Source of the DNA: a bacterium
GTDB lineage: Bacteria; Patescibacteriota; Minisyncoccia; Phycocordibacterales; UBA5272
Reading direction: 5' to 3'
Length of the DNA: 64,000 nucleotides
Assembly: GCA_023267535.1 (NCBI GenBank)
Contig: JAHFNC010000003.1
Coordinates: forward strand, 75,653 to 139,652
Of this stretch, positions 30,490 through 57,790 are shown one piece after another (position 1 is the stretch's first letter; each line of letters opens with the position of its first letter). The position numbers were made by a program, and so were the translations under genes. The notes below the pieces were generated by a model, which was not told the DNA's origin, made no database searches, and saw only the letters and a list, made by a program, of their open reading frames with translations.

Positions 30490-30525
30490 TTAGCTTTGTA
30501 GTTTTTTATAGTTTAATATGTAGAA

Positions 30526-31299: not shown

Positions 31300-31359
31300 A
31301 ACACTACCGTGGGGAAAAGTTTATTATAAGGAAGACTTTGGTGTTAAAATTACATTAAT

Positions 31360-32253
31360 ATGGACGAAACAACTATTTCTTTAAAAAAGAAGGATTTATT
31401 AATTTTATTAGTGGCCATTGTTATTATCGTTTTGCTTTCTTTAATGCCTGCGAAGTGGTTAGGTCTTGGAAGTAATAAATTAACACAAAATGTGCCAGGG
31501 GATTTAACTGTTATCAGTACTAAAATAAAAAATGGCGAAAATCCAATAGCCCCATACATCAAAAGTTTTAGTGATAATGGACAAGCCACAGATGTGAGCA
31601 CAGTTGACCCAGTGGTTAATGATGATAATAATATCACCACTCAATTTTCAAAAAATTCTTTCTCAATAGCGGCCGCTTTAAATAATCAGGGGGTAACGGA
31701 TACCAACACCGTAAATAAAGTCGGTGCAAATTTAGGAAATATCACTCAGTCGGATTTGTTTAAACCGAAATTTACAATTAACGATGTTAAGATTTCACAA
31801 AATAATGATGTTAAAACATTAAAAGATTATGGCAATAAGATTGTTGGAGAAACGGCAATAATCTTAGTAAGCTTGGTCGGCAATAAAGATACGGAAGATG
31901 TATCTAATTACATGAATGACAAGAACATCAGCGACCTTAAAAATTATGATGTCAAAATAACTTATACTCAAAAAGTAATAAATGATTTCAAACAACTCTC
32001 GGTCCCGCCATCTTTCGCTAATGCTCACTTAAATATGTTAAATAATTTAAACTCTTATTTGGTTATGTTAAAAGGATTTAGAGGAACTGACACTGATCCA
32101 CTATATTCATATATAGCGCTTAATAATTACGGAAATATTTCTAATTCATTTATAAATTCAATAAGAGAATATAAAACAATATTTGATAACAACTCAATTG
32201 TTTTTGGACCAAATGACCCAGGATATTTATTTAATAATCTAAATTATAAATAA
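31360..32253 (+). CDS. hypothetical membrane-anchored extracytoplasmic protein (first gene of T4SS-like locus)
   Basis: 297 aa. Single N-terminal TM (LLILLVAIVIIVLLSLM), Asn/Thr-rich ectodomain. Stop is 1 nt from the next start. Confidence 0.5.
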   Translation: MDETTISLKKKDLLILLVAIVIIVLLSLMPAKWLGLGSNKLTQNVPGDLTVISTKIKNGENPIAPYIKSFSDNGQATDVSTVDPVVNDDNNITTQFSKNSFSIAAALNNQGVTDTNTVNKVGANLGNITQSDLFKPKFTINDVKISQNNDVKTLKDYGNKIVGETAIILVSLVGNKDTEDVSNYMNDKNISDLKNYDVKITYTQKVINDFKQLSVPPSFANAHLNMLNNLNSYLVMLKGFRGTDTDPLYSYIALNNYGNISNSFINSIREYKTIFDNNSIVFGPNDPGYLFNNLNYK

Positions 32254-32254
32254 C

Positions 32255-34000
32255 ATGAAAAAAATAATTATTTTGTTTGCGGTAATAGTGTTGGTAACAG
32301 GAAAGTACAAAGCTGAAGCCCAATTAGCTGTTGCTTGCGTCAATTGTTCAACTTGGATGTCCCAGGTGGGCATCCAAATTCCTAAAGAAATAATTACCGC
32401 CGTTGAAACAGGATATACAGCTGTTTCAACTGGACTGTCCGCAACAAAAGGAACAATTTTAGACCCAATAGCTAATATGCTGAAAAATACTGTTCTTAAC
32501 CAAATAACTAACACAACTTTAAATTGGGTAAGAAGTGGTGGAAAAACCAGTCTAAGTGGATCTTTATTTATAAATAATCCAGATAGATTTTTACAAAATG
32601 TAACCAACAATGCCACTCGTATTGCTATCAATCAAATGCAAGGACAAAACGGGGGAGACATGTTTACCAATAGCGTTATTGGCGCCGTTACAGCAAATGT
32701 ACGAAATGGGCAACTATCCATAAACGCCCAAGTGCCGTACACCCTAGCAACAACGATACAAAACGGTGCCTGCACTGATGCTAATTTATCTCAAATGGCA
32801 CTTAATGCTATCGGTGGAGGAGATTTAACTGACCCTGCAACCAGAGTCGCCTACAATCAGAAAAAATCAGATTTATATAATTCGTTATGTAAGACATCTG
32901 CTTCAGGAAGTTCTGGATCATCAGCGAACGGAAATAATCAGGCACAGAATCAACAGAAAGTAACAAATTGCTTTTTAGGGGATTTCAATTGTGGTGGGTG
33001 GAATGCTTTTCTTGATATGACAAATACCAATACTAATCCATATGCAGTACAAGCCCAGAGACAAGCCCTAGCCGTACAGCAAGCGGCAGACGCCAAAGCA
33101 AAAGCACAACTTGATATGCAAAATGGTAAGGGGGCAATAAGTCAAACAACTTGTGATAAAACACAAATAGACCCAAACAGTGGAAAGTCCATGTGTATAG
33201 GACAAACCATTGTCACTCCATCCTCTGTTGTCTCAGATACTATGAACAAATCGGCCTCACGTGGAGTAGATACTTTGATGAATTCACAAAACGATATATT
33301 CACAACATTTGCTAACGCTGCCATGACTGCGCTTATGAATGGAGTGTTCTCGTTATCATATAATAGTAGCGGTTCTGGTGGTGGGTCAATCACTTACAAT
33401 CCTACAACACCTATAAATACCGTTGTAGCAAGTTCAACCAATCAAAATGATTTATCGGTAGCAAACAAAACTACACTAGCAGCTCCTTTACTTGATAAAT
33501 TAAATGGCGAATTAGTGGAAATTGATACTATCAAAACAGGGGATGGCAATATTATTGCCATGCTAAACAGTTACGAGTCACAAGTTAACGGACTAACAGA
33601 TTGCTACGGTAGATTAATTGCCTTAAATCAGACCATGGCCAGTGATACTAGAGTTTTAGCAGGAAACACATTAGTAGACGCTAGAAAGTTACGAATAAGA
33701 AATGAAAGAAATTCTCTCCAAGCAGAAATAAATTCTTCGGCATCAACAACAGTTGCTATTAACGGTGTGAAAACTACAATCAGCAACACTTTCAGCACAA
33801 CAGTACTTGGACAAATAGCTGATTCAATTTCAACAGCCATAACAAACGGAACACTGCCAGCTCCCGGAACAGGTGCACAAAAAGAGGCAACCCTAATAAC
33901 CGAAAGACAAACAAATGATGATGATATAAAAAACAATATAGCTCCTAAAATCAATGAGTGTGAACAAATAATAGTTTCAATGAACAATATATCTCAGTAG
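32255..34000 (+). CDS. hypothetical secreted protein (T4SS-like locus). Cys-containing, Thr/Ser/Asn/Gln-rich
   Basis: 581 aa, signal peptide (MKKIIILFAVIVLVTGKYKAEA), several Cys pairs. Possibly a surface or pilus-associated component. Confidence 0.5.
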   Translation: MKKIIILFAVIVLVTGKYKAEAQLAVACVNCSTWMSQVGIQIPKEIITAVETGYTAVSTGLSATKGTILDPIANMLKNTVLNQITNTTLNWVRSGGKTSLSGSLFINNPDRFLQNVTNNATRIAINQMQGQNGGDMFTNSVIGAVTANVRNGQLSINAQVPYTLATTIQNGACTDANLSQMALNAIGGGDLTDPATRVAYNQKKSDLYNSLCKTSASGSSGSSANGNNQAQNQQKVTNCFLGDFNCGGWNAFLDMTNTNTNPYAVQAQRQALAVQQAADAKAKAQLDMQNGKGAISQTTCDKTQIDPNSGKSMCIGQTIVTPSSVVSDTMNKSASRGVDTLMNSQNDIFTTFANAAMTALMNGVFSLSYNSSGSGGGSITYNPTTPINTVVASSTNQNDLSVANKTTLAAPLLDKLNGELVEIDTIKTGDGNIIAMLNSYESQVNGLTDCYGRLIALNQTMASDTRVLAGNTLVDARKLRIRNERNSLQAEINSSASTTVAINGVKTTISNTFSTTVLGQIADSISTAITNGTLPAPGTGAQKEATLITERQTNDDDIKNNIAPKINECEQIIVSMNNISQ

Positions 34001-34037
34001 GTTATTCCCTAATAAACGTAACCAAATAAAAGCCTGT

Positions 34038-36671
34038 TTGCAGTTAAAAAACAGGCTTTTATTATGCTACAATAACACTATGAAAAAGTTGATAGGACTT
34101 TTTGTTTTTGTAATAGCTTTTAGTGTGTTTTTGTTGCCAAAAACAACAATCGCTCAAGTGGTAACGGATAAAACTTACGCTGGGTACTCGGCTTTTTTTG
34201 ATACAGCTGTAAGCCAAGTAAACAATGCTAACGGTATAAATAGTAATGATAAACCTAAAGTGGTGAGTGTGGTTACTTCCGCTAAATATTGGTACGACAA
34301 CACATACAGAAACTCTACCGCCACAACTGAAGGGGCAAAATTATCTGAAGCTTTACAGAAAGCATATGATTCTGTAATAAGTGATACCGATAGCACTTTT
34401 TATCTTTCATTACAAGCTGGTAGCAGAACCCCTGCGGAAAGTTTCTTGTCCTCTTTTGGTGGACAGCTAAGGGTATACGCCAATGAGGCTGGTATAGTGC
34501 AGCAATTGGCTACAACAAATGGAACCACTACTCAAGCAGCTCAATCTCAACTAAATTCTCAAACAGCTAATCTGGCTGGCACGCAAGCCACAGCTTTAAA
34601 CGAACAACCTCAAAAATGTTCTTTCGGTCCTTCTTTTAGTATGTCGGCTTGTATTAATGATTTCGTTACTTGGCTTATAAAAGTAACTCTCTTAAACATT
34701 GCTTCTGTTTTACTTTGGGCGGCATCTTCTGTTCTTAATATGTCTATGCAATACGGAGTATTTCAGTTTGCATCATGGGCACCAGCAAGTTTATATCCAC
34801 TATGGCAAATAGTCAGGCAAGTAATGTCGCTATGTATAATTTTCGCCGGATTGTATGTTGGTTTTATGTATATAATAAATCAGCAAGATATTTTTATAAA
34901 AAGATTTATTCCGTGGCTTGTTGTTTTTGCTTTCTTTGTTAACTTTTCATACCCAATATCAAGAGCGCTTATAGATATATCAAATGTAACTTCACTAAAT
35001 ATATACTCTCAGGCTACTGGTAATGCAAATTTATTAGACAAAGACTACAATGGACCAAAAACAATGGGCTCAGAAATAATGACAAAGCTTGGATTACAAG
35101 ATTTAATTTTTACAGTAAACAATCCATCTAACACTTCTCTTTTGGGAAATTTAAATAGTCCAGGAATAGCATTAGTTGCCGTAGCGTATGTGTTATATGC
35201 CGCCTATGTTTTATTTATGTGTGCACTCTTAATAATGACTAGAACATTTGTTTTGATATTTACAATAATTGGATCTCCGATTCTTTTGATTGATTCGGTT
35301 ATACCAAAATTAGGAGAGTACGGTAAAAAGTTGCGCTCTTTATTTTTTGGGCAACTAGCTGTCTCTATTATTTTTACAATTATGTTTTATTTTGTAATAA
35401 AAGTTATGGAAATATTGGGTACAGCTTTGCCTGCCAAAATAAGTAATCTAAATGGAAGCCCTACTTCTGCTGATATTGCTGGTATGTTTTTTGGAATACT
35501 GATGATGCTTATACTGCTTCACATTATGCTTAAGGTAACCAAGAGCTTGAGTGGAGCAATTGGAGAAGTTGTTACAAAATACGGAAATGCCGCTTTGGGT
35601 GCGACGCTTGGCTTGGCAGCTGGAGGAGCTGGTTTAGCAGGAAGGGCTGTCATAGGACGTGGAGCAGCTGGGCTTGCTGAAAGTCAGTGGATGCAAAAAG
35701 CGCAAGGAAGTGCACTTGGTCGTATGGCATACAATGCCACCAACTCTGTGGGGAACAGTTCTTTTGATTTAAGAAATTCTGGTATCGCTCAGAGAGCGGG
35801 TGGTGCTTTTGCTAGCACCTTAGGAATAAAAGATGTAGGTCTCGGAAAAGGAAGTCAGACATCTTATAACAAAAACCTAGCAGAAAGAACGACTAGTTTT
35901 AAAAAGAAATACGGGGAAATTAAAGATGATAAAGCCAGACAAGAATATGCTAGGAATGTAAGCAACTCGGGAATCTTTGGTGAAGGTAAAAAAATAACAA
36001 AAGAAGTATTTTCAAAAGAAGAGGAAGAGGCTAGACGAGAAAACAAAGGAATTGATGCTCTCACAAATAAATATAGAAACTCAACAGGAGAAGACAGGCA
36101 AAACCTTTTCAAAAACTCCTCTTCTGATGCAAAACAGGCGATGAAAGGTACAGACGAAGCTGCGGGACGTAATGATGAATCTATCGCTAATCTCATGACA
36201 GAGGCTAAGGAAATAGATAAAACAGTAAAGAGCTATAATGAGTCTTCTTCTCCAGATAAAGAGCTCATTCTTAATATGCAAGAACAAAGTGTTAAAGATA
36301 TGCTAGTTGGGTCAGATAAAACAAAAGCTCAAAAGGTGAACAACTATGGCTCAGTTTCTGGAAACACAAAACAACAATATTTTGAGAAACAAAATGATGA
36401 TACAAAAGAAGCTATGTTGGAAAAAGATAAAGCAGAAGCCGAAAAAGAAAACATGGAAAGAGATAAACAAGAAGCCACAAAAACCGATAAAGTTGTAAAT
36501 GCTTACAATAATAAATCTGATGATACTAAACGAAAAATTTTTGATAATCAAAAAGATGACATTAAAAAAATCTTAATGGAACAAGATAGATCAAAAGCAG
36601 AACAAGAAAATAAAAACAGGGGAGAATCTACTCCTAACACCCAAATAAATCCAGTCCGTTTAGCAGCTTAA
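34038..36671 (+). CDS. VirB6/TrbL-like polytopic membrane protein with N-terminal periplasmic domain and K/E-rich cytoplasmic tail
   Basis: 877 aa. Signal peptide, ~190 aa soluble domain, then about eight TM helices in the VirB6/TrbL arrangement, then a Gly/Ala-rich linker and a long charged tail. Confidence 0.45.
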   Translation: MQLKNRLLLCYNNTMKKLIGLFVFVIAFSVFLLPKTTIAQVVTDKTYAGYSAFFDTAVSQVNNANGINSNDKPKVVSVVTSAKYWYDNTYRNSTATTEGAKLSEALQKAYDSVISDTDSTFYLSLQAGSRTPAESFLSSFGGQLRVYANEAGIVQQLATTNGTTTQAAQSQLNSQTANLAGTQATALNEQPQKCSFGPSFSMSACINDFVTWLIKVTLLNIASVLLWAASSVLNMSMQYGVFQFASWAPASLYPLWQIVRQVMSLCIIFAGLYVGFMYIINQQDIFIKRFIPWLVVFAFFVNFSYPISRALIDISNVTSLNIYSQATGNANLLDKDYNGPKTMGSEIMTKLGLQDLIFTVNNPSNTSLLGNLNSPGIALVAVAYVLYAAYVLFMCALLIMTRTFVLIFTIIGSPILLIDSVIPKLGEYGKKLRSLFFGQLAVSIIFTIMFYFVIKVMEILGTALPAKISNLNGSPTSADIAGMFFGILMMLILLHIMLKVTKSLSGAIGEVVTKYGNAALGATLGLAAGGAGLAGRAVIGRGAAGLAESQWMQKAQGSALGRMAYNATNSVGNSSFDLRNSGIAQRAGGAFASTLGIKDVGLGKGSQTSYNKNLAERTTSFKKKYGEIKDDKARQEYARNVSNSGIFGEGKKITKEVFSKEEEEARRENKGIDALTNKYRNSTGEDRQNLFKNSSSDAKQAMKGTDEAAGRNDESIANLMTEAKEIDKTVKSYNESSSPDKELILNMQEQSVKDMLVGSDKTKAQKVNNYGSVSGNTKQQYFEKQNDDTKEAMLEKDKAEAEKENMERDKQEATKTDKVVNAYNNKSDDTKRKIFDNQKDDIKKILMEQDRSKAEQENKNRGESTPNTQINPVRLAA

Positions 36672-36718
36672 TGACAAAAAGACTTTGATTTCGTCTGTTT
36701 AAGAAGTAAACTAAAACA

Positions 36719-37417
36719 ATGAACGTCAGCGAACTACAAGATTATTTTGCCAATGCCGAACCAGAAATAAAAGTATTTTTGGCGTCTGACGAGCTGGAAA
36801 AATCTGTGGCGGTTTTAGGCGAATCTCATGGCCTACAAATTTCTAAATATCTAGCTCTTCAAAATGTTGTCACTCTTTTACTTATTGGAGCTCTCAAACC
36901 AGAAGGTGCAGTTGATTCATTGAAAGAACATCTAGAAATTACTGATAGCGCTGCTTATTTACTTGCTAAAGATATTGATGCTAGTATCTTGCAAAAAGTT
37001 AGGATGTCTATCTTTGGAAAAACGGAAGGCGAAATAAAAGAAATAAAATTAGGAAACCCTGATGAAAAAAGAGAATCACTTAGAGCTCAGATTGCTCAGG
37101 AAATAAATAAAAATCCTACCCCTCCAGAAAAAGATGACAGCAGAAAAGTCCCTACCATGTCCAGAAATGATTTAATGGAACAGCTTGGCTTACTTGAAAA
37201 AATACCAAACGATGAAGACGTAGAGAAAAGAATGGCTATTATAAAAGACCAATTAGAAAAAATAAAAAAAGAAGAGGAAGTGCAAGAAAAAGAGCAAGAA
37301 AAAGAAATTCTTTTAAAACCAAAAGAAATAGTGGTAACCGCAGAACCAAAAATGGCGCCTTACAGCGAAGCTCCAACGCATTATAATGTTGACCCTTATA
37401 AAGAAACCGTCGAGTAA
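36719..37417 (+). CDS. hypothetical acidic cytoplasmic protein (T4SS-like locus)
   Basis: 232 aa, E/K-rich C-terminal half. Confidence 0.45.
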   Translation: MNVSELQDYFANAEPEIKVFLASDELEKSVAVLGESHGLQISKYLALQNVVTLLLIGALKPEGAVDSLKEHLEITDSAAYLLAKDIDASILQKVRMSIFGKTEGEIKEIKLGNPDEKRESLRAQIAQEINKNPTPPEKDDSRKVPTMSRNDLMEQLGLLEKIPNDEDVEKRMAIIKDQLEKIKKEEEVQEKEQEKEILLKPKEIVVTAEPKMAPYSEAPTHYNVDPYKETVE

Positions 37418-37456
37418 GTAATTGGTTAATTAAACTTTTGAGATTATAATATAGCT

Positions 37457-37891
37457 ATGCAATTTAGAGTCCCACAATTTATTGATATTGAAGATAAAAT
37501 ATTTGGGCCTTTCACCTTGAAGCAATTTGCTTACATCATCGGAGCTCTTGGATTTTCTTTTATAATTTGGACATTCATCAGTAATAGACTAATAGCTTTT
37601 ATTCTTATACTTCCAGTGGCCGGACTATTCGTGGCTTTAGCTTTTGTTAAAGTAAATGAACGTCCGTTTGTTGATATGTTAGAAAGTGCATTTAAATATA
37701 TAACTAGCTCAAAAATATATACATGGAAACAACCAACGGTAGCCGAGGGGACTGAAAACAAAAAACCAAACCAAATTGTAACCGAAGCCACCAAGTCAGC
37801 GGTCATAGAAAATGTTAAAGCAAATAGATTACATGAAATTTCTGTCGGGCTTGATATTTTGGATCGTAACGATATCGGAGAAAATAGTTAA
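37457..37891 (+). CDS. PrgI/VirB3-like small two-TM protein
   Basis: 144 aa. N-terminus MQFRVPQFIDIEDKIFGPFTLKQFAYIIGALGFSFIIW followed by a second helix. Similar size and topology to PrgI/TcpE/VirB3 proteins that precede VirB4 in Gram-positive-type T4SS. Confidence 0.45.
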   Translation: MQFRVPQFIDIEDKIFGPFTLKQFAYIIGALGFSFIIWTFISNRLIAFILILPVAGLFVALAFVKVNERPFVDMLESAFKYITSSKIYTWKQPTVAEGTENKKPNQIVTEATKSAVIENVKANRLHEISVGLDILDRNDIGENS

Positions 37892-37954
37892 TTATACTGT
37901 TTTTCTTATCACTATTAACTAGTAACTACAAGCTAGCTTTGTTATACTTTTACT

Positions 37955-38611
37955 ATGGCTATTTCTACTGCTACACAGCAGTTTGTTCCAATAGATAAAA
38001 TAAGAGATGGAGTTATCGTATTAAAAAATGGAGAGTTAAGAGCAATCCTAATGACGAGCTCTCTTAATCTGTCTCTAAAAAGTACCGATGAGCAACAAGG
38101 AATAATTCTTCAGTTCCAAAATATGCTAAATTCCCTTGATTTTCCAATACAATTTTTTATACAATCACGTAGATTAGATATAAAACCCTATCTTGATTTA
38201 TTAGGGGAAAGAAGGACGGAAGTGAAAGAAGATTTATTAAAATTACAGATAAACGAGTACATCGGCTTTATAAAAAAATTTACTGATGAGGTAAATATTA
38301 TGACCAAACATTTTTTTATTGTCATTCCTTATATGCCTCCAGTTATATCACAAAAAAATGCTGGCATTTCTTCATTGCTTTCAATGGGAGCAACGAAAAC
38401 AACCAAAGAAGAAATAAGTTCTTTTGAAGAGAATCGTATGCAGTTGGAACAAAGAACAGCAACAGTAATGCAAGGAATTACTAGATTTGGAATAAGAGCT
38501 CAGAAATTAAAGACTGAGGAAATTGTGGAATTGTTTTATAAAATATTTAATCCTGGCGAGCAAGATCATTCCGTTCACTCCATAGCAACTAATTTAGGAA
38601 ACAAACAATAA
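37955..38611 (+). CDS. VirB4-family ATPase, N-terminal segment (separated from the downstream ORF by a frame change; possible pseudogene, split gene or sequencing frameshift)
   Basis: VPIDKIRDGVIVLKNGELRAILMTSSLNLSLKSTDEQQGIILQFQNMLNSLDFPIQF resembles the extreme N-terminus of conjugative-transposon VirB4/TrsE ATPases, from memory. The downstream reading frame is open from 38598, so the two ORFs overlap by about 14 nt in an A-rich stretch (GGAAACAAACAATAA). Confidence 0.45.
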   Translation: MAISTATQQFVPIDKIRDGVIVLKNGELRAILMTSSLNLSLKSTDEQQGIILQFQNMLNSLDFPIQFFIQSRRLDIKPYLDLLGERRTEVKEDLLKLQINEYIGFIKKFTDEVNIMTKHFFIVIPYMPPVISQKNAGISSLLSMGATKTTKEEISSFEENRMQLEQRTATVMQGITRFGIRAQKLKTEEIVELFYKIFNPGEQDHSVHSIATNLGNKQ

Positions 38612-38612
38612 T

Positions 38613-40427
38613 ATGGGAGCATTCGATTTTTTAAATTCAAAAAAAGATTCACCGATACAGCCAGTTTTACCTGAGCAAGTTTATCAAGTGGCAGAAATGC
38701 AACTGAAAGACATCATCGCGCCATCAGCACTCGGCATTCAACCAAAGATGCTGTCACTCGGGACAAGCGTTCTTCGTTCATACTTTGTAATTTCCTATCC
38801 AAGATTTTTAAATGATGGGTGGCTTAGTCCAATAATAAACTTAGATAAAGTTTTTGATATTTCTTTACAAGTTATTCCTCTTGATACTTCAAAGGTAATG
38901 AAGGATTTTCAAAGAAAGGTGGCTGAGGTAGAAAGTCAAATAATGAATCGTGAAGAGAAGGGGATGGTTCGTGACCCATCACTTGATGTGGCTTACAAAG
39001 ATTTGGAAGATTTGCGTGATGGACTAATACAAGCTCAAGAAAAAATGTTTGATGTTTCTTTATACTTTTCTATTTACGGAGAAAATGAGGACGAAATAAA
39101 TAAAGCAGAAAATGAAATCAGAACAATATTAGAAAGTAGAATGGTTTATGTAAAGCCAGCACTCTTCCAACAAGATGACGCTTTCTTAAGTATTATTCCT
39201 CTACAAACAGATGTTCTTCAAATAAAAAATAAAATGAATACTTCTCCTTTGTCTTCATTTTTTCCATTCGTATCTTTTGATCTATCAAGTGATAGAGGGA
39301 TTCTTTATGGAATAAATCGCCACAATGGAAGTTTGGTTTTGTTTGATAGATTTTCTCTTGAAAACTACAATTCTATAATTTTTGCCAAATCTGGATCTGG
39401 AAAAAGTTATGCTACTAAGCTTGAAATACTAAGGACACTGATGTTTGATACCGAAGTTATTATCATTGACCCAGAAAAAGAATATGAATATCTAGCTGAA
39501 TCCGTAGGTGGAAGGTATTTTGATATTTCTTTAACTAGCGAACACCATATAAATCCTTTCGACCTTCCACATCCAACCGAAGAAGAATCACCGTCTGAAA
39601 TTTTGCGTTCAAATATTGTAAATTTAGTGGGACTATTCCGTGTAATGCTTGGAGGCCTCACTCCAGAAGAAGATGCCATCATTGATCAAGCGTTATCTGA
39701 AACTTACGCCCTAAAAGATATCTCAGGCGACACTGATTTTACAAATATGGAACCACCGCTATTATCAGATTTTGAAACAGTGCTAGCTGGAATTGATGGC
39801 TCAGAAGATTTGCAACAAAAACTTTCAAAATATACCAAAGGAACTTGGGCTGGATTCATTAATCAACCTTCAAATGTTGATATCAACAAAAAATTAGTTT
39901 GTTTTTCTATTCGTGATATGGAAGATGAGCTAAAAGCAGTAGCAATGTATATCATTACTCACTATATATGGAATGCTATTAGAAAAAATATTAAGAGAAG
40001 ATTACTCGTAGTGGATGAGGCCTGGATTATGATGAAAAATGACGACACGGCCTCATTCTTATTTGGTTTAGCAAAAAGAGGACGAAAATATTATTTGGGA
40101 TTGGCAACTATTACTCAAGATGTGGGAGACTTCCTCAAATCTCCATACGGATTACCGATTATTACTAACTCTTCTATTCAAGTGTTACTTAAACAGTCGC
40201 CATCGTCCATTGACCAAATACAGCAAATATTTAGTTTAACCGATGAAGAAAAATTTTTACTGTTGGAATCAAATGTTGGGGAGGGTATATTCTTTGCTGG
40301 ATTAAAACACGTAGCCATAAAAATAGTGGCCTCTTACACGGAGGACCAAATCATCACCAGTGACCCATCTCAATTACTTAAGATAAAAGAGATGAAGGAA
40401 GAAATAAAAGAGGCAAAAACCGTATGA
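38613..40427 (+). CDS. VirB4/TrbE/TraC-family type IV secretion ATPase (CagE_TrbE_VirB plus ATPase domains)
   Basis: 604 aa. N-terminal region YFVISYPRFLNDGWLSPIIN, Walker A IFAKSGSGKSYATK, Walker B LLVVDEAWIMM and the C-terminal GLATITQD motif. Confidence 0.75.
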   Translation: MGAFDFLNSKKDSPIQPVLPEQVYQVAEMQLKDIIAPSALGIQPKMLSLGTSVLRSYFVISYPRFLNDGWLSPIINLDKVFDISLQVIPLDTSKVMKDFQRKVAEVESQIMNREEKGMVRDPSLDVAYKDLEDLRDGLIQAQEKMFDVSLYFSIYGENEDEINKAENEIRTILESRMVYVKPALFQQDDAFLSIIPLQTDVLQIKNKMNTSPLSSFFPFVSFDLSSDRGILYGINRHNGSLVLFDRFSLENYNSIIFAKSGSGKSYATKLEILRTLMFDTEVIIIDPEKEYEYLAESVGGRYFDISLTSEHHINPFDLPHPTEEESPSEILRSNIVNLVGLFRVMLGGLTPEEDAIIDQALSETYALKDISGDTDFTNMEPPLLSDFETVLAGIDGSEDLQQKLSKYTKGTWAGFINQPSNVDINKKLVCFSIRDMEDELKAVAMYIITHYIWNAIRKNIKRRLLVVDEAWIMMKNDDTASFLFGLAKRGRKYYLGLATITQDVGDFLKSPYGLPIITNSSIQVLLKQSPSSIDQIQQIFSLTDEEKFLLLESNVGEGIFFAGLKHVAIKIVASYTEDQIITSDPSQLLKIKEMKEEIKEAKTV

Positions 40428-41638
40428 TGAAGAAAATTCTTAATTTTTTTATTAACGACGTAGAGCGAGAGCAGTGGAAAAGTAATCTTTTTATCTTCCG
40501 AGTCGAGGTGAGAAGCGACCAAAGAAGCTTCGCAAGATTCGGAGGCAGGCGTGCCGAGAATGGGGTCGGCAAAAATTTTTTGCTAAAAATTATTTGTGAC
40601 TTAAAAAGAATTGCAATACCGCGGAGTCTGCTCTCTATTTGTACAAGCAAATCGAGTTCTATTAAACACCTCGTCAACTTGCTGCGAATATCCTTTATTT
40701 TATTTATTATTTTAACTCCTGTAACTCACGCCGAATTTACAGGCACTATTAATATAGATCCACCAAACCCAAGCACTTATCAAGCGGTAACTGCTACTCT
40801 ACAAAGTTTTAGTTTTAATGTTGATAATTCTCTTATTACTTGGTATCTAGATAATAAACTTATTGTTTCAGAAATTGGTAAAAAACAAATTTCTTTGACA
40901 ACAAAAGGAATAGGGCAAACAACCACAATAAAAGTACAAGCTAAAATGGCAGATGGAAATGTTTTTGAAGCCTCAATGACACTTGCTCCTCAGTCAGTTG
41001 ATTTATCTTGGGAGGCTACCGAAGGATATGTTCCACCTTTTTATGAAGGTAAGGCTATGCCGGGGGAATCATCTCAGATAAAGGTGGTGGCTGTTCCCTC
41101 TTTTTCTTCAAGTGGAAAACCGATAGCTCCGGAGAATCTTTCTTATGAGTGGTTTGTAGATGATGGAAAATTAGAAGATCAGTCAGGGCGCGGGAAAAAC
41201 GTAGCTTTTTTAAATCTTGATTACTTATCAAATGATAATGTCATCAGAGTTGATGTAACCTCTGACGATGGTTCAACTGCTGAAAACACAGTGACGATAT
41301 CTCCTTATAAACTTGATCCAATATTTTATTTTAATGACCCAATACTTGGTCCCGACTTTAGTAAAGCCATTGAAGACAGATTTGAAACCACAAAAGAGTT
41401 TTCACTGGCTCTTGTTCCTTATGGTTTGTCATCCTCTAATAACATTAAAGATTACTCTTCTTTTTCTTGGTCGCTGGATGGATTACCTATTGATACTCCA
41501 GCTGATAATGTTTTATCATTAAGACCAACAGATAATAGCTATGGATCGAAATCATTATCGGTTAATATAGAAAACACAAAAAGAATGTTACAGAAGGGAG
41601 TTGCATCTTTGCAAATAGTGTTTGATACTAGAAACTAA
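40424..41638 (+). CDS. hypothetical secreted/anchored beta-rich protein (start uncertain; alternative TTG near 40679 gives a clean signal peptide)
   Basis: The ATGA overlap with the virB4 stop suggests translational coupling. The first ~85 codons overlie repeat family B. The hydrophobic segment LLRISFILFIILTPVTHA is followed by a ~300 aa soluble domain. Confidence 0.45.
   Translation: MMKKILNFFINDVEREQWKSNLFIFRVEVRSDQRSFARFGGRRAENGVGKNFLLKIICDLKRIAIPRSLLSICTSKSSSIKHLVNLLRISFILFIILTPVTHAEFTGTINIDPPNPSTYQAVTATLQSFSFNVDNSLITWYLDNKLIVSEIGKKQISLTTKGIGQTTTIKVQAKMADGNVFEASMTLAPQSVDLSWEATEGYVPPFYEGKAMPGESSQIKVVAVPSFSSSGKPIAPENLSYEWFVDDGKLEDQSGRGKNVAFLNLDYLSNDNVIRVDVTSDDGSTAENTVTISPYKLDPIFYFNDPILGPDFSKAIEDRFETTKEFSLALVPYGLSSSNNIKDYSSFSWSLDGLPIDTPADNVLSLRPTDNSYGSKSLSVNIENTKRMLQKGVASLQIVFDTRN
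40449..40696. repeat. repeat family B, long copy (short copy at 48238-48303), carrying a ~190-nt insert that includes family-A-like words (GAAGCGACCAAAG, GCTTCGC)
   Basis: TTATTAACGACGTAGAGCGAGAGCAG ... CTCGTCAACTTGCTGCGA matches TTATTAACGATGTAAAGCGAGAGAAG ... CTCGTCAGCTTGCTGTGA at 48238. Confidence 0.45.
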
Positions 41639-42566
41639 TATGGCTACATACCAATTACTTGAACCATCATTACCAGCAACCGTTGGAACTGGCGCCAACC
41701 TATCTTTTAACACAGCGGGTGTTAATTCTGTCTCTGGTGCTTTTTCATTATTATTCAGTATTGGAATTATTGCTTGCTTAATAGCTTCAGGTGGAGTTTT
41801 TTTATTTTCCGGATTTCTTAGACTAACAGCTACGGGGCCGGGGGATGTTGGTAAATCAAACGAAGGATTAAAGAGGGCGTCATATGGACTAATTGGAGTT
41901 CTATTAATGTATTTAATATTAAATGAAATAAATCCAAATTTATTAAAAGACGGAATAGTGTTGCCAGCAATAACTGGCTTCGGTGGAACAGTTCAAACAA
42001 ATCCGGCAAATACAAATAGTGGTGGTGTTAGTGCTAAAAATCTCCAACTATATCAAGAAATGGCAATTACTGAGAATGGCGTCCGAAATGCATTAAGTGG
42101 TGTTGGCATTCAAATTAATAGACCAAATGCCTGTGTGACAAATGGAACTAATGGTCCTCAAACAGTTGCTTCCGGTTGCACTAGTGTCGGAGGAATGAGT
42201 GGTAGTATGGTAAATGACTTAATTTTGTTAAATGCTCAGTGTAAGACCTTTATGAAAACAGATTGTCATATAGTAATAACAGGGGGGACAGAGTGGTGGT
42301 TACATGGTGGAGGAGTGGTTGATGTTGATACAAATAAATCATTACATAAACCTGCCTCTGCTGGAGGACATGCGGTAGATTTTAGTATGGGAGCCAATAA
42401 AACTACTGACCCTTTATATTTATTTGTAACTACAAATAGAGCAAACTTTACACCCCTTCCTTCAGACAACTGTTGTTCTTCTAAATATCAGTACGGACGT
42501 GGTTATATTTTTTGTGATGAACTCCCAAGCTGTGGTGGCACTGGCGCACACTGGCATGTTCAGTAA
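41622..42566 (+). CDS. membrane protein with pilin-like double-TM N-terminus and C-terminal putative Zn-peptidase-like (M23/LytM-like) domain. Candidate T4SS cell-wall hydrolase
   Basis: The N-terminus has two hydrophobic helices (LLFSIGIIACLIASGGVFLF; YGLIGVLLMYLILN) like VirB2/TrbC pilins. The C-terminus has GGHAVDF and the terminal CGGTGAHWHV, which resembles the M23 GxTGxHLHFE motif seen in the LysM-M23 gene of this window. Confidence 0.35.
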   Translation: MILETNMATYQLLEPSLPATVGTGANLSFNTAGVNSVSGAFSLLFSIGIIACLIASGGVFLFSGFLRLTATGPGDVGKSNEGLKRASYGLIGVLLMYLILNEINPNLLKDGIVLPAITGFGGTVQTNPANTNSGGVSAKNLQLYQEMAITENGVRNALSGVGIQINRPNACVTNGTNGPQTVASGCTSVGGMSGSMVNDLILLNAQCKTFMKTDCHIVITGGTEWWLHGGGVVDVDTNKSLHKPASAGGHAVDFSMGANKTTDPLYLFVTTNRANFTPLPSDNCCSSKYQYGRGYIFCDELPSCGGTGAHWHVQ

Positions 42567-42598
42567 ATATTAATATTGTATTGTATAATTAATTAATA

Positions 42599-43900
42599 AT
42601 GAATCGTCGGCTTTTTATAATTTTATTTGCGGTTGCCTCTATAATAGGAGTATCTATTATAGTTTGGTACTTCTTTTTCAAGACAAATACCGGTAGCTTA
42701 CTTTTTGGAACACCAACCAATCCGTTTGGTAAAACTCCACCATCACTTCGTGGTTCAGAATTTGTTAATGGAAATAACGGTTACGGTACAAGCTCTCAAA
42801 CAGAAAGAACTCTCGGCGCTGACAGAACGTTAGTAAAAGTTTGGGATAGACCCACTGCTGGATTTTCTTTTATAGAAAAAGAATTTATAACAACTTCTAC
42901 AACAACTGATAAACAAGGGAAGGTGATAACTGTTCAGAAAAAAGCGACTTCAACGGAAATGCTTTTCGCCGACAGAACTACTGGTTATATTTATGACTAC
43001 GATATAAAAAATCAGAATATATATCAAATAACTAATACTCTAACTGCCGGAATATATGATATTTATTTTTTCAATAATGGAAAGTCAGCCATTATCCGCT
43101 ATTTAAGCGATGATAAAAAAACAATCATCTCTAATCTAGTTCAAATACCAACAGTCTCAGCAAGCAGTTCTCCACAAGAAATAAAAACAAATGTTTATTT
43201 ACCAAATAATATTATTTCTATCACTCCAAATTATAATTCCACTGAACTTTCTTATTTAGTAAAAACAAGTAGTGGTAGTAATTTATATACCCTAACAACT
43301 AAAGGTTCTAAACTAATAAAATCTTTTCAGTTATCAGAATTAAATGTTCTGTATGATAAAAATAATTTGTATGTTTATAACAAGCCTTCAATTTATGCTC
43401 TCGGATTTTTGTATGATGTTAAAAATAATGAAAATATATTAAGTAAAACTGTGGCCTTATCTCCGCTTGTCTCGCACAACGGTCAAAATGTTATGGGAAG
43501 TTTTTGGTCAGAGTCTAGTTCTAATAATTTTATGTTTAATAAAAGTACCGCTTCAATGAGAAGTCTCTCTATTTACACCCCAGAGGAAAAATGTGTCTGG
43601 AATAACAAAGATACTTTTGTATTATGTGGAGTAACTCCGGTTATTTTCAACAAAAAAGAAGGACTTCCTGATGATTGGTATAAGGGGCGAGTTTCTTTTG
43701 ATGATAGTATTTATATGATTGATAATGTTGGCAAAAGAGAATACGACTTCTTTGATTTTACAGCTGAGACAAGTGACAAAATAGATTTAACTAAACCAAA
43801 GATATCAAACAATGATGAACTTCTGGGATTTATAAATAAGAAGGATGGTTCGTTCTGGATGTTTAAAGTGAAGAAAACTTTAGATAATGTTTACGATTAA
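42599..43900 (+). CDS. hypothetical membrane-anchored extracytoplasmic protein (last gene of T4SS-like locus)
   Basis: 433 aa. N-terminal TM (LFIILFAVASIIGVSIIVWYFFF), beta-rich ectodomain. Confidence 0.5.
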   Translation: MNRRLFIILFAVASIIGVSIIVWYFFFKTNTGSLLFGTPTNPFGKTPPSLRGSEFVNGNNGYGTSSQTERTLGADRTLVKVWDRPTAGFSFIEKEFITTSTTTDKQGKVITVQKKATSTEMLFADRTTGYIYDYDIKNQNIYQITNTLTAGIYDIYFFNNGKSAIIRYLSDDKKTIISNLVQIPTVSASSSPQEIKTNVYLPNNIISITPNYNSTELSYLVKTSSGSNLYTLTTKGSKLIKSFQLSELNVLYDKNNLYVYNKPSIYALGFLYDVKNNENILSKTVALSPLVSHNGQNVMGSFWSESSSNNFMFNKSTASMRSLSIYTPEEKCVWNNKDTFVLCGVTPVIFNKKEGLPDDWYKGRVSFDDSIYMIDNVGKREYDFFDFTAETSDKIDLTKPKISNNDELLGFINKKDGSFWMFKVKKTLDNVYD

Positions 43901-44617
43901 TTAAGCTCTGTTTAAATTTTTAATATGACTCTTAATATAAACATCTTGTAAGAAAGTAATAATATTATTTGTTACCCAATAAAGTCCTAAAGCAGCTGGA
44001 AGTGCTGTCGCTGATAATCCAACAACTACAGGTAACACATAAAGTAATTGTATTCTCATTGATTTCATAAAATGATCTTGGAAGGATTCATCTCCTCCCT
44101 TCTTGGCGCTCATTGATTGAGTTTGTCTTCTAGCTAAGAAAAAAGATGAGAGTCCAGTTATAATTCCAATGACTAGACTTCTTTTAGTAACATCCAGTAG
44201 ACCAAAAGCCTCCGTGTGTAATACGGCAGGAAAGGTTACAAAATTATAAATTGAGTTAGGGTCATTAAACATTCCTTTAGAAAAAACGAAGTACAGAGCA
44301 AAAAATATTGGGATTTGAATAATCATTACAAATAATGATGATAATGGATTAATTTTTTCTCTCTTGTAAACTTCCATTATTTTAAGGGACAATTCTTGTT
44401 GATTGTGTTTATGATTTTCCTTTAGAACTTTTATTTCTTCATCTAATGCCTTCATTAAATACTGGCTCTTTGTTGCTCTTAGGTTTAAAGGAAGTAGTAC
44501 GAGCTTCACAACCACTGTAACCATAATAATAGAGGCCCCAATGTCGTGCAGGGGAATTATATTTAAAAATATAACTAGCAGATTATATATTGGTTTGTAG
44601 AAAATAAGATGAAACAT
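43901..44617 (-). CDS. yidC: membrane protein insertase YidC (short Oxa1-like form)
   Basis: 238 aa, five TM segments and a charged C-terminal tail. Sits in the conserved rpmH-rnpA-yidC arrangement. Confidence 0.8.
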   Translation of the reverse strand: MFHLIFYKPIYNLLVIFLNIIPLHDIGASIIMVTVVVKLVLLPLNLRATKSQYLMKALDEEIKVLKENHKHNQQELSLKIMEVYKREKINPLSSLFVMIIQIPIFFALYFVFSKGMFNDPNSIYNFVTFPAVLHTEAFGLLDVTKRSLVIGIITGLSSFFLARRQTQSMSAKKGGDESFQDHFMKSMRIQLLYVLPVVVGLSATALPAALGLYWVTNNIITFLQDVYIKSHIKNLNRA

Positions 44618-44618
44618 A

Positions 44619-44933
44619 TTATAAAATATTTTTTAACTCACTATTCAGATTATCATATTTGGTGTATAAAACCTCTCTTTTTGGATAAATTATATAGAAA
44701 TTCGGTTTAAGTTCATTTTTATGTTCCATAAACAAATTATAGATTTTCCTCTTCATTTTATTTCTGTCTACCGCTCTTTTAGCCGTTTTTTTGGAAACCA
44801 CACAAGAAACCTTAAAAGAAGGTAACCCTTCTTTTTCAATAATAGAAATATCAAAAAAAGACCCTCTTATAATCTTTTTTTTAGATATTAAAGAGAAATC
44901 CTTCTTAGAAAGCCGATTTTTCTTTGGTGGCAT
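44619..44933 (-). CDS. rnpA: ribonuclease P protein component
   Basis: 104 aa. Basic N-terminus MPPKKNRLSKKDF and the RNR-like motif (AKRAVDRNKMKRKI). Confidence 0.8.
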   Translation of the reverse strand: MPPKKNRLSKKDFSLISKKKIIRGSFFDISIIEKEGLPSFKVSCVVSKKTAKRAVDRNKMKRKIYNLFMEHKNELKPNFYIIYPKREVLYTKYDNLNSELKNIL

Positions 44934-44936
44934 AGA

Positions 44937-45071
44937 TTATACCGATAATTTCTTTCTTCCTCTACTTCTTCTATTAGCAATTATCTTTTTTCCAGATTTA
45001 GTTGACATACGAACTAAAAATCCGTGTGTTGTTCCTCTCTTTTTTCTTTTAGGTTGATATGTTTGTGACAT
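44937..45071 (-). CDS. rpmH: 50S ribosomal protein L34
   Basis: Minus-strand translation gives MSQTYQPKRKKRGTTHGFLVRMSTKSGKKIIANRRSRGRKKLSV (44 aa). Not in the ORF track because it is under 60 aa. The plus-strand ORF 44791-45057 is its antisense. Confidence 0.85.
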   Translation of the reverse strand: MSQTYQPKRKKRGTTHGFLVRMSTKSGKKIIANRRSRGRKKLSV

Positions 45072-45201
45072 AAACGATATTCTATATCATAAAGACATAT
45101 AAATCAACTTCTGTTTTTTATGTGTCTTTAAGTAATTTAACCCTATTACTACTTAAATGTCTCATGTCTAGTTGAAGAGTTTTGGGGGAGGAGTATACTA
45201 G

Positions 45202-46545
45202 ATGACTATGGATTACCAACAACTTTGGAGTACAGCTTTATCTCAGATAGAAATTGAATTATCTAGGGTCAATTTTAATACTTGGTTCAAAAATACAAAA
45301 ATAATTGACTATAAAGAGGGAGAGGTGGTGATTGGCGTTCCGAATGAATTTGTTAAAGATTGGTTAAATCAAAAATATCATAAATTTATTTTAAGAATAC
45401 TTAGAACAGTTTATGACGGCGTCCGATCAATAAGCTTTTCTGTTGTTAAATTAGAAACACTTAATAAAAAAGTTCAGAACATCACTATCCCCGGACAAAC
45501 TCTTCCACTTAATGATTTATATATTAATAAAGACGACGGATTAAATCCAAGATACACCTTTGATAATTTTATTGTTGGATCTTTCAACGATGTAGCGTTT
45601 GCCGCTTCACAAGCAATAATAAATAATTTAGGCATTCTTTATAATCCATTATTTATTTATGGAAACACTGGGCTTGGAAAAACTCACTTGATACAAGCGG
45701 TTGGAAATACTGTTAAGAAAAAATATCCAGATAGAAAAATTTTTTATACATCTCTTGAAAAGTTTTATATGGATTATGTTAATGCTACTAATTTAAATAA
45801 AATAAATAGTTTCAAAGAAAAGTATAGAAAATATGATGTTTTTATAATGGATGACATACAATTCATAAATGGAAAAGAGAGAACTCAAGATGAATTATTC
45901 CATTTATTTAATTCATTATATGAGATGAATAAACAAATAATCTTTTCGTCAGATAAACATCCTAATTTTATTATTGGTTTGGAAGATAGATTAAGATCTC
46001 GTTTTAATCAAGGAATGATAATTGATGTTAATATTCCTTCTTTTGAATCTCGTTTTGCTATTTTAAAATCAAAAACAAAAGATTTCTCAGATAAGATTAC
46101 AGATGAGGTTTTGGAATATGTTGCTGAAAATGTTCAAGGAAATATTCGTGAGCTTGAGGGTGTTACAAATTCTTTAATTGCTAGTATTCAATTAAAACAA
46201 CAAGTTTTGTCATTACAAGAAATAAAAACTCTTCTAAAGAATAATATTAAAATAAAGAAAAATGTTTCTGTTCCTGAGATAGTTAAAATAATTTCTGATT
46301 ATTATAATATTCCCGATTCTTATGTTTATAATAAAACTAGAAGAAAAGATGTTGTTAAGCCTCGTCAAATAGTAATGTATATCTTGCGAGAAGATTTTGA
46401 TATTTCTTATCCAGTAATTGGAGATAGATTAGGGGGGAGAGATCACACCACCGTTATTCACTCTTATGAAAAAATAAAAGAATGTCTTAAAAAAGACCCT
46501 CATCTAAATAAGGAGATTGAGGATATTAGAGCAATTCTTTCATAA
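45202..46545 (+). CDS. dnaA: chromosomal replication initiator protein DnaA
   Basis: Walker A GNTGLGKTHL, sensor motifs and the C-terminal DNA-binding signature VIGDRLGGRDHTTVIHSYEKI. Confidence 0.92.
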   Translation: MTMDYQQLWSTALSQIEIELSRVNFNTWFKNTKIIDYKEGEVVIGVPNEFVKDWLNQKYHKFILRILRTVYDGVRSISFSVVKLETLNKKVQNITIPGQTLPLNDLYINKDDGLNPRYTFDNFIVGSFNDVAFAASQAIINNLGILYNPLFIYGNTGLGKTHLIQAVGNTVKKKYPDRKIFYTSLEKFYMDYVNATNLNKINSFKEKYRKYDVFIMDDIQFINGKERTQDELFHLFNSLYEMNKQIIFSSDKHPNFIIGLEDRLRSRFNQGMIIDVNIPSFESRFAILKSKTKDFSDKITDEVLEYVAENVQGNIRELEGVTNSLIASIQLKQQVLSLQEIKTLLKNNIKIKKNVSVPEIVKIISDYYNIPDSYVYNKTRRKDVVKPRQIVMYILREDFDISYPVIGDRLGGRDHTTVIHSYEKIKECLKKDPHLNKEIEDIRAILS

Positions 46546-46869
46546 TTAAAAGCACTAAAAATAAAATTTAGTGCTTTTAATTTGTTTTACATATGTGAAT
46601 TACTTGTTAAGAACTATGTTGATAAGTTTAAATATAGCTGTTAATAATCCTAGATTAGTTTAGTGGTAATTTTTAAAGTCTGTATTTTTGTACACAAACC
46701 TAATTAAACTTTTAGTTATTAAATAAAATGGTTTCTAAATAAAACCTTATATAGTAAAGACTTTTTAGCTATCAACACTATTAACACTCTTATCATTATT
46801 ATCATATTTTATATATAGTAATAAGAGAAAAATGTGAGGATAAAAGATTTGTAGTATAATTTATGAACT
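46546..46869. other. candidate oriC (AT-rich dnaA-dnaN spacer with degenerate DnaA-box-like 9-mers)
   Basis: 324 bp, AT-rich by eye. TGTGAATTA (46594), TTATCAACA on the complement (46617-46626), TATCAACAC (46770) and TGTGAGGATAA (46833). An AT-run (TCATATTTTATATATAGTAATAAG) could act as the unwinding element. Sits in the conserved rpmH-dnaA-dnaN context. Confidence 0.5.
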
Positions 46870-47961
46870 ATGAGATTTGAATGTAAGGGAGAAAACTTTT
46901 CTAATGTAATCCAGCAAGTGTCAAGAGCTAGAAGTAAAACCCAATCCCAAAACTACCTACAAGATGTGTTTCTAAATTTAGAAGATCACATCTTAACCTT
47001 GAGAGCTACTAATTTAGAAATTACCTGCGAAAAAAGTTTTTCCGTCAAAGGTATACAAAACGGTAGTTGTATTTTAAAAGGAGACACTTTGGTAAAAATA
47101 ATTCCATTACTTAAGAGGGAGAACACTGTTTTCTTTTGTGAATTAATCGATGGGGTTTTTTCTATTAAAACCGAAAAAGATATTGTTGAAATAAAAACAA
47201 CACCTTATGAAGACTTCCCAACATTACCACCACAAGGGGAATTAATTGGGAGTATTTCAATATTATCTTTATCAACTCTTTTAAGAGAAGTTTCTTTTTG
47301 TTCAGCTACTACAGAAATTAAACCAGAGATATCATCAATCTTTATATATTCAAAAGAAAAAGATTTGATTTCAGTAGCAACCGACTCATATAGATTGGCG
47401 GAAAAGGTTGTTAATAATGAAAATAATTTAAATATTTCGGTTTTAATACCACAGAAATACGTAGTTGATATTTTAAGTATTCTAAATGATGAAGAAGGTG
47501 AGATTTCTATATACAAAAAAGATGGGTTATTAACATTATCAAACAGTAATTTAAATCTTTGTATTCATATAATTACAGGAAACTTTCCAGATTACAGACA
47601 ATTATTTCCAAAAGAATTTTCAACAACTTGTTTGATTGATAAAGAAGAGTTACAGAAATCATTAACATTAACAACTTATTTCACAGAACAATATTCTCAA
47701 GTCAAATGTATTGTGAATGACAACAACGTTACCTTAAGTAGTAAAAATGAAAATATTGGTCAGGTTATTAATACAATCAAAACTGAAAAAGAGGGTGCTG
47801 ATATAGAAGTTAATTATAATAATAAATATTTCCTAGATGTCTTTTCTCATATAAACGGAAATAAAATAAAATTATCTTTTACTACAGCTAATAAACCAGT
47901 ATTTATGGAAGGCAATAATGATATTAGTTTTACATATCTTTTAATGCCCCTTAACAGATAA
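46870..47961 (+). CDS. dnaN: DNA polymerase III beta sliding clamp
   Basis: 363 aa, three-domain length. MRFECKGENFSNVIQQV start and its position right after dnaA. Confidence 0.85.
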   Translation: MRFECKGENFSNVIQQVSRARSKTQSQNYLQDVFLNLEDHILTLRATNLEITCEKSFSVKGIQNGSCILKGDTLVKIIPLLKRENTVFFCELIDGVFSIKTEKDIVEIKTTPYEDFPTLPPQGELIGSISILSLSTLLREVSFCSATTEIKPEISSIFIYSKEKDLISVATDSYRLAEKVVNNENNLNISVLIPQKYVVDILSILNDEEGEISIYKKDGLLTLSNSNLNLCIHIITGNFPDYRQLFPKEFSTTCLIDKEELQKSLTLTTYFTEQYSQVKCIVNDNNVTLSSKNENIGQVINTIKTEKEGADIEVNYNNKYFLDVFSHINGNKIKLSFTTANKPVFMEGNNDISFTYLLMPLNR

Positions 47962-56859: not shown

Positions 56860-56929
56860 ATTAAGTAGCTTTACAGGGTTGAATTTAGCTCTGTTTTCAC
56901 AGGTTCTTTCACAAATTGGAGGTTCTAAA

Positions 56930-57706: not shown

Positions 57707-57749
57707 ACAAGTAAACAACAAGAAGAAGTTTTTTACAATTTTTTTTTAC

Positions 57750-57790
57750 AAAAGCCCATACGAAAGTATGGGCTTGACTTTTTATATTTC
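57750..57790 (+). terminator. rho-independent terminator
   Basis: AAAAGCCCATACGAAAGTATGGGCTTGACTTTTTAT. Confidence 0.65.

Follow-up and report, generated by a model that had tools for sequence, protein, structure and literature searches.

Patescibacteria are already known to carry a two-gene form of VirB4, composed of TrsD and the ATPase, and this form has been published. TrsD, which is remotely homologous to the N-terminus of VirB4, is the most abundant T4SS component in these bacteria and usually adjoins virB4 (Quiñonero-Coronel et al., 2025, Microb Genom, PMC12102498). The number of TrsD homologues reported in Patescibacteria is 2,272, of which 1,664 are associated with virB4, and some of those in Gracilibacteria have no virB4 association (PMC12102498). 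In these chromosomal loci a PrgI/VirB3-like gene is followed by the TrsD-like gene and then by virB4, with pilin-like and membrane-protein genes nearby (PMC12102498). Passages in PMC12102498 and PMC12857230 report T4SS genes of Patescibacteria as essential for epibiotic growth, and the essentiality of TrsD in Ca. Southlakia epibionticum is stated in PMC12102498 with reference to Wang et al. (2023). In VirB4 proteins, the N-terminal domains link the protomers of each dimer and contact VirB3 and VirB8 (PMC12857230). The staphylococcal TrsD/TraD and TrsE proteins of pSK41/pGO1 (MPF-FATA, pGO1 subclass) show a comparable arrangement, with a soluble protein of ∼220 aa encoded directly upstream of a VirB4-type ATPase of ∼600–670 aa.

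The window analysed here, a stretch of 64,000 nucleotides, carries such a gene pair on its forward (+) strand, which also carries all the other genes of the cluster described below. ORF1 (37955..38611; 218 aa) encodes a TrsD-like stand-alone protein whose counterpart in VirB4 is the initial stretch of ∼200 residues of the N-terminal domain, and ORF2 (38613..40427; 604 aa) encodes the VirB4-like ATPase proper, comprising the latter half of the N-terminal region of VirB4 and the RecA-like C-terminal ATPase domain. We consider the pair, with a probability of about 0.93, to be a natural, conserved two-gene VirB4 of a chromosomal T4SS in a Patescibacteria (CPR, Paceibacteria/Nomurabacteria-like) genome. 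The original prediction had placed both ORFs at exactly the positions and in the geometry that we re-read from the sequence, and had listed a frameshift pseudogene, a sequencing error, a natural split gene and programmed slippage as explanations without choosing among them; the natural split proved to be the correct one.

ORF1 ends with a TAA stop codon at 38609–38611, which is followed by a lone T at 38612 and by the ATG of ORF2 at 38613, so that the junction reads TAA-T-ATG (38609..38615) and ORF2 is shifted by +1 with respect to the ORF1 frame. Upstream of its ATG, the ORF2 frame remains open back to 38598, directly after a TAG at 38595–38597, and the two open frames therefore overlap by 14 nt, as had been noted originally. 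The junction had also been described as an A-rich tract, and A-rich it is, but the overlap (38598–38612) contains no homopolymer longer than AAA, and the longest run near the junction, T6 at 38627, is located within ORF2. An A-rich junction in a metagenome-type assembly could raise the suspicion of a homopolymer-type indel that produced an artificial frame change by sequencing or assembly error. Against this stand the absence of any run longer than three nucleotides within the overlap and the record of an identical protein pair on two contigs (142,539 bp and 5,162 bp), the junction on the retrieved one being identical to that of the window. Furthermore, the same architecture is present in 78 independent genomes and on finished plasmids of cultured Bacillota, and we regard an error of this kind as practically negligible. 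A search for Shine–Dalgarno motifs at the junction revealed AGGA 13 nt upstream of the ORF2 ATG. As such motifs are mostly absent, and indeed almost never present, in the genes of the T4SS cluster, this tetranucleotide is uninformative with regard to independent initiation, and for the same reason nothing specific marks the TAA-T-ATG junction. The Rfam scan detected four tRNAs only, with no match near the junction.

The assignment of the downstream gene is clear-cut. ORF2 matched positions 183–733 of the 752-position profile NF045971 (VirB4-like, CD1110 family) with 368.6 bits, above the cutoff of 325, and positions 285–893 of NF045975; it also matched Pfam P-loop_TraG (E 7.7e-27, 94.4 bits, cutoff 25.8). 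Residues 226–583 correspond to the C-terminal domain of VirB4 from T. pseudethanolicus (4ag5, E 2.1e-40), and similarity to TrwK was likewise found (E 1.9e-6). Both nucleotide-binding motifs are intact in the translation: the Walker A sequence AKSGSGKS occupies residues 258–265 (39384..39407, + strand) and the Walker B-like sequence LLVVDEAW residues 464–471 (40002..40025, + strand). The NF045971 score, the Walker motifs and the homology to 4ag5 together mark ORF2 as a predicted VirB4-type T4SS ATPase. The stop codon at 38609–38611, however, parts the N-terminal ∼200 residues from this ATPase domain, and since the separating stop is conserved among relatives, the locus represents the two-gene variant of VirB4 and not the single-chain form.

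ORF1 had been proposed to be the N-terminus of VirB4, and this was upheld by four independent VirB4-type NCBIfam models, all of which match it over their N-terminal parts. Among them, NF045975 is matched at positions 103–287 (E 5.7e-12), NF045971 at positions 1–117 (E 1.3e-6) and the TrbE model at positions 53–223 (E 4.5e-4). Alignment of both ORFs to full-length VirB4 had been suggested as a means to locate the junction; on the NF045975 model, the matches of ORF1 and ORF2 abut near positions 285–287. The ORF1 model could be aligned to TrwK over 146 residues. ORF1 spans positions 21–200 of the 201-position TrsD/TraD model NF041427, where it scored 27.3 bits (E 2.7e-6) against a curated cutoff of 200 bits, and its profile gave a weak hhalign match to TrsD of pSK41 (E 0.063). 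Because the NF041427 score is far below the cutoff and the hhalign match is weak, ORF1 is, as judged from its sequence, a remote and not a close relative of staphylococcal TrsD, outside the narrow NF041427 subfamily; the link between the two is suggested by the NCBIfam model match, a shared position of the split and the literature. ORF1 nevertheless has the features of a TrsD-like protein, namely homology to the VirB4 N-terminus and a stand-alone gene for ∼200 aa that adjoins virB4 on its upstream side. No transmembrane segment was found in ORF1, and the protein is predicted to be soluble. Some of its CPR homologues possess disordered tails of 130–230 aa.

ORF1 might instead be an unrelated small protein encoded upstream of a naturally short VirB4, its resemblance to VirB4 being spurious. 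Consistent with this reading, a search of PDB sequences with ORF1 gave no match, no Pfam match was obtained even at E 10 in an older release (model versions.6 vs.7), and the hhalign comparison with pSK41 TrsD was weak, as mentioned. On the other hand, the precomputed annotation, built on a more recent Pfam release, gives the identical protein and all 120 homologues listed the label PF26593 ‘TraC-like’, and the homology of TrsD to the VirB4 N-terminus is stated in PMC12102498. The N-terminal matches to four VirB4-type models, the best of which abuts that of ORF2, and a fused relative colinear with both ORFs also contradict a spurious resemblance, and we consider an unrelated ORF1 to be very unlikely. 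This relative (P0380), a single protein of 797 aa, aligns colinearly with ORF1 plus ORF2 at 46% identity with a gap of 24 residues in the linker, the linker of the window pair being about 24 residues longer. The combined length of ∼822 aa had been put forward as a normal size for VirB4, and rightly so.

Whether the division arose in this genome or is shared by its relatives was decided by comparison with homologous proteins and loci. The best 120 of 3514 matches to ORF1 are stand-alone proteins of 210–224 aa with 64–73% identity, and the best 120 homologues of ORF2 are likewise stand-alone, with 589–611 aa and 82–87% identity. A library clustered at the 50% identity level yielded 2165 clusters that match ORF1, and the top 150 of these comprise 149 short stand-alone proteins and only the one fused protein P0380. 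Encoding of the N-terminal ∼200 residues by a separate gene is thus routine, occurring in thousands of homologues, and it is this observation that the original prediction had named as the mark of a normal split. The orthologous region was compared in 78 resolvable species-representative loci from other species; related loci are labelled Paceibacterota, Nomurabacteria or Parcubacteria. The two-gene form was found in 78/78 of them: the first gene terminates throughout at a stop codon of its own (TAA in 70, TAG in six and TGA in two loci), and the second invariably has its own ATG and a conserved MG(L/I)FDF N-terminus, to which the MGAFDF of ORF2 conforms. Spacers range from −4 to +491 nt and lie between −4 and +14 nt in 71 of the 78 loci; they are long (35–491 nt) in a few relatives and mostly 1–8 nt among the short ones, so that TAA-T-ATG with its single nucleotide is one among many variants. 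All three relative frames occur (1/2/0 in 36/27/15 loci), and a stop codon intervenes even where the two genes are in frame. An apparent gene fusion in one locus (L027) was rejected, as a TAA at L027 4607–4609 had been read through by the tblastn alignment.

The idea that a single virB4 was broken by a recent indel, leaving a frameshift pseudogene and a decaying secretion system, draws on the adjacent frames of the two ORFs with their +1 offset and 14-nt open overlap, and on the existence of one fused relative of 797 aa. Yet a recent lesion does not agree with a division located at the same place in 78/78 related loci, with individual stops and starts and in three relative frames, nor with the finding that, for either half, the nearest 120 homologues are stand-alone proteins. 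Moreover, MGAFDF matches the conserved start of the second gene, the Walker motifs are intact, and so are the cluster genes, which are syntenic. A pseudogene is therefore given next to no weight, and the notion of a gene split by a frame change, which headed the original prediction, did not hold in view of the variable frames and spacers and of the separate stop and ATG in each relative.

Programmed +1 ribosomal frameshifting, or another type of recoding, would yield a fused VirB4 of 822 aa beside or instead of the separate products. The downstream gene does lie in the +1 frame here with 14 nt of open overlap, and a fused form is viable in at least one relative. However, the two genes stand in no constant relative frame (36/27/15) and both the junction sequence and the spacers vary, in-frame pairs are still parted by a stop, the downstream genes retain their ATG and conserved N-terminus, and the junction yielded no recoding signal in our analysis; we thus judge recoding as an explanation of the gene pair to be very improbable. 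The 1-nt junction with its 14-nt overlap might still permit occasional +1 recoding to a minor fused 822-aa VirB4 that tunes the stoichiometry of the motor, although no data specifically favour this. A more modest reading credits the TrsD-like protein with a separate function that goes further than replacing the missing N-terminal segment, as is hinted at by the disordered tails of some CPR homologues and by the Gracilibacteria TrsD proteins without virB4 (PMC12102498). Jointly, these two additions to the two-gene reading are accorded a slight chance.

The pair lies within a T4SS gene cluster. Directly upstream, prgI (37457..37891, +) encodes a small VirB3-like membrane protein that matched PrgI (PF12666, E 3.8e-10, 40.6 bits, cutoff 27) and in which hydrophobic windows overlap one another within residues 24–66; most of the related loci likewise have prgI ahead of the gene for the TrsD-like protein. 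Further upstream, a polytopic membrane protein of 877 aa with about seven hydrophobic segments (34038–36671, +) and a protein of 232 aa (36719–37417, +) are encoded, neither of which had a match in Pfam or NCBIfam, and most of the 78 loci show synteny of both genes with prgI-trsD-virB4. On the downstream side, the ORF list contains proteins of 404, 314 and 433 aa (40424..43900, +). The first of these genes shares 4 nt at its start with the virB4 stop, and each of the three products contains one transmembrane-like segment. The 314-aa protein showed a weak similarity to T4SS_pilin (PF18895, E 0.0056), below the cutoff. These downstream genes are syntenic in many related loci, and all genes of the cluster are intact. 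The locus is chromosomal and situated beside ksgA, rnpA, yidC, dnaA and dnaN, and the scan of ORFs between 23 and 62 kb revealed neither a relaxase nor a coupling protein. PrgI/VirB3-like and TrsD-like genes near dnaA, dnaN, rnpA and ksgA, with no relaxase seen between 23 and 62 kb, correspond to the chromosomal T4SS of Patescibacteria described in PMC12102498, from which the window locus shows no substantive difference and of which it is one more member.

The gene order prgI, trsD-like, virB4 mirrors the order of domains in single-chain VirB4 proteins, such as R388 TrwK (PDB 7o41/7o42) and the CD1110 and Mbov_0397 families, and in VirB3–VirB4 fusions. In contrast to single-chain VirB4, the polypeptide is divided between two genes in the window, or among three as compared with the VirB3–VirB4 fusions when PrgI/VirB3 is included. 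A membrane-anchored motor is probably formed by non-covalent assembly of the three products. By analogy with R388 TrwK, the TrsD-like protein would supply the N-terminal contacts, that is, the linkage of protomers within each dimer and the binding of VirB3 and VirB8. The TAA-T-ATG junction and the short spacers, considered for their spacing, would fit translational coupling, by which the two halves may be kept near equimolar. The window locus adds one further example to thousands, and its main value lies in guarding against mis-annotation: abutting VirB4 fragments in different frames may be misflagged as a pseudogene or as a decaying secretion system, whereas the two-gene VirB4 is the normal, conserved form of the T4SS in Patescibacteria.

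Outside Patescibacteria, the division falls at a corresponding place. On pSK41, trsD (227 aa) is followed by a 672-aa DUF87 ATPase in the TrsE position, and residue 6 of ORF2 aligns to residue 5 of this ATPase (24% identity), which indicates that the split point is common to the window and pSK41. The two differ in their setting: pSK41, a conjugative plasmid, also encodes a relaxase and a coupling protein, whereas the window locus sits on a chromosome, next to oriC. The succession of a small gene, an N-terminal protein and an ATPase was also found on Bacillota plasmids (Pontibacillus NZ_CP062975, Geobacillus pGspE55-1 and C. difficile BI1 NC_017177), where a ‘hypothetical protein’ of 274–322 aa precedes a VirB4-like ATPase of 621–640 aa. 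These hypothetical proteins share 24–34% identity with ORF1 over about 90% of its length. In contrast to the window locus, the N-terminal protein is 55–100 aa longer in these systems, which are plasmid-borne and distant in sequence. The small upstream gene is annotated as PrgI in both Geobacillus and C. difficile.

The layout predicted from the original reading of the sequence, a VirB4 ATPase divided between two ORFs, was borne out. ORF1, a TrsD-like gene of 218 aa (37955-38611, + strand), ends in a TAA stop codon (38609-38611), and ORF2, encoding a VirB4-like ATPase of 604 aa (38613-40427, + strand), opens with an ATG at 38613 after a spacer of one base (T at 38612) and in frame +1 relative to ORF1. 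A TAG (38595-38597) precedes the ORF2 frame, which is open from 38598, so that both frames are open over 14 nt; homopolymer runs in this overlap do not exceed AAA. Elsewhere in the cluster, a 1-nt spacer also separates the 297-aa and 581-aa ORFs (32253-32255), and virB4 and the 404-aa ORF overlap by 4 nt (ATGA, 40424-40427). Given this equally tight packing, the TAA-T-ATG junction is typical of the operon.

ORF2 scored 368.6 bits against the VirB4-like CD1110 family (curated cutoff 325) and contains a P-loop_TraG domain with intact Walker A (AKSGSGKS, residues 258-265) and Walker B (LLVVDEAW, residues 464-471) motifs; the solved VirB4 C-terminal domain (4ag5) matched residues 226-583 (E 2.1e-40). 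Its best 120 homologues were all 589-611 aa in length, with 82-87% identity. Among VirB4 models, ORF1 matched N-terminal parts only, namely positions 1-117 of NF045971, 53-223 of TrbE and 103-287 of NF045975 (E 5.7e-12); as ORF2 occupies positions 285-893 of the last model, both matches abut. ORF1 also covered nearly all of the 201-position stand-alone TrsD/TraD model, although far under the family cutoff (E 2.7e-6), and its product is soluble, with no transmembrane segment. A fused 797-aa relative (P0380) was colinear with ORF1 plus ORF2 at 46% identity, the sole notable gap at the junction being 24 residues in the linker. The best 120 of 3514 ORF1 homologues were all 210-224 aa (64-73% identity), and when a library clustered at 50% identity was searched, ORF1 matched 2165 clusters, with short stand-alone proteins making up 149 of the top 150. 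Four stand-alone TrsD-like proteins from other CPR genomes (P0255, P0303, P0328 and P0346) carry low-complexity, P/A/Q/T-rich C-terminal tails of 130-230 aa, which the 218-aa protein lacks.

Eighty related loci were fetched from species-representative genomes (Paceibacterota, Nomurabacteria, Parcubacteria, Zambryskibacteria, Kaiserbacteria and similar titles), and both genes could be resolved in 78. In all 78, the first gene has a stop codon of its own (TAA 70, TAG 6, TGA 2) and the second opens with its own ATG and a conserved MG(L/I)FDF-type N-terminus (MGAFDF in ORF2). The spacer ranged from -4 to +491 nt, with 71 loci falling between -4 and +14 nt, and the second gene stood in relative frame 1 in 36, frame 2 in 27 and frame 0 in 15. 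Gene breakage, an error in sequencing and programmed frameshifting, all raised in the original prediction, would each lead one to expect a fixed frame relation or a lineage-restricted lesion; under none of them would separate stops and starts be expected in all frame combinations over dozens of species. Moreover, the protein pair is recorded identically on two contigs, the retrieved one having the same junction. These three explanations are therefore not supported; the N-terminal part is routinely a stand-alone gene in homologues, and the split is real and natural, a two-gene VirB4, as the remaining option had proposed. L027, considered as a fused gene, was ruled out, since its TAA had been bridged by the tblastn alignment. 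Long spacers (32-491 nt) occur at L055, L050, L051, L066 and L077; that of L055 (~490 nt, 4640-5130) might hold an inserted element or small gene.

The split arrangement is not novel, having already been described for Patescibacteria and pGO1/pSK41-type systems. Plasmids from Pontibacillus, Geobacillus and C. difficile (cultured Bacillota) are annotated with the same gene order: a small gene (PrgI in the latter two), a 274-322 aa protein matching ORF1 and a VirB4-like ATPase of 621-640 aa. The staphylococcal conjugative plasmid pSK41 carries trsD (227 aa) ahead of a 672-aa DUF87 ATPase, whose residue 5 aligns to residue 6 of ORF2, and thus the split position is the same. Compared directly, the ORF1 family profile matched pSK41 TrsD weakly (E 0.063), and their kinship is remote. 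Quiñonero-Coronel et al. reported TrsD, distantly homologous to the VirB4 N-terminus, as the commonest T4SS component of Patescibacteria, with 1,664 of 2,272 homologues associated with virB4, citing the essentiality of a TrsD homologue in Ca. S. epibionticum (PMC12102498). The ORF1/ORF2 pair is a warning against pseudogene annotation.

In single-chain VirB4, the N-terminal domains link the protomers of each dimer and touch VirB3 and VirB8 (PMC12857230). ORF1, whose product corresponds to the first ~200 residues of this region, lies between the genes for VirB3-like PrgI and the ATPase. In the most likely working model, PrgI, the TrsD-like protein and the ATPase would assemble non-covalently into a single-chain-like architecture; judging from the spacing, the tight junction may allow translational coupling and so keep the halves equimolar.

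Chromosomal in location, the T4SS cluster (31360-43900, + strand) directly adjoins replication-origin genes, within a region at 30526-47961. A UvrD-like helicase gene and ksgA (30526-31299) lie upstream, and yidC (43901-44617, - strand), rnpA (44619-44933, - strand), dnaA (45202-46545) and dnaN (46870-47961) downstream, the same context as the placement of virB4 regions often seen in Paceibacteria near dnaA, dnaN, rnpA and ksgA (PMC12102498). The order o877, o232, prgI, trsD, virB4, o404, o314 (numbered genes being named by product length in aa) is conserved in related loci. The region at 44-48 kb is AT-rich (GC 0.27-0.29). Among gene starts from 28558 to 46870, Shine-Dalgarno-like motifs were missing upstream of almost all cluster genes examined, and a clear GGAGG was found before dnaA only; with such near-absence, translation initiation in this organism seems largely SD-independent.

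Elsewhere in the window, two ORFs at 56879-58716, with a GC of 0.51-0.54 against ~0.33 for the genome, encode G/A/Q/P-rich products with an N-terminal hydrophobic segment and no Pfam match; they are a compositional outlier or else an insertion of foreign origin. At 58847-61246, a secreted protein of 799 aa is predicted; it also lacks a Pfam match and consists mostly of ~8-residue 'YDTGTTYxT' repeats (Thr 17.5%, Tyr 10.5%), and a PilB-like T2SSE ATPase gene (53802-55499, - strand) lies a few kb away. Four tRNA genes (Rfam), three on the + and one on the - strand, lie within 3807-5999.
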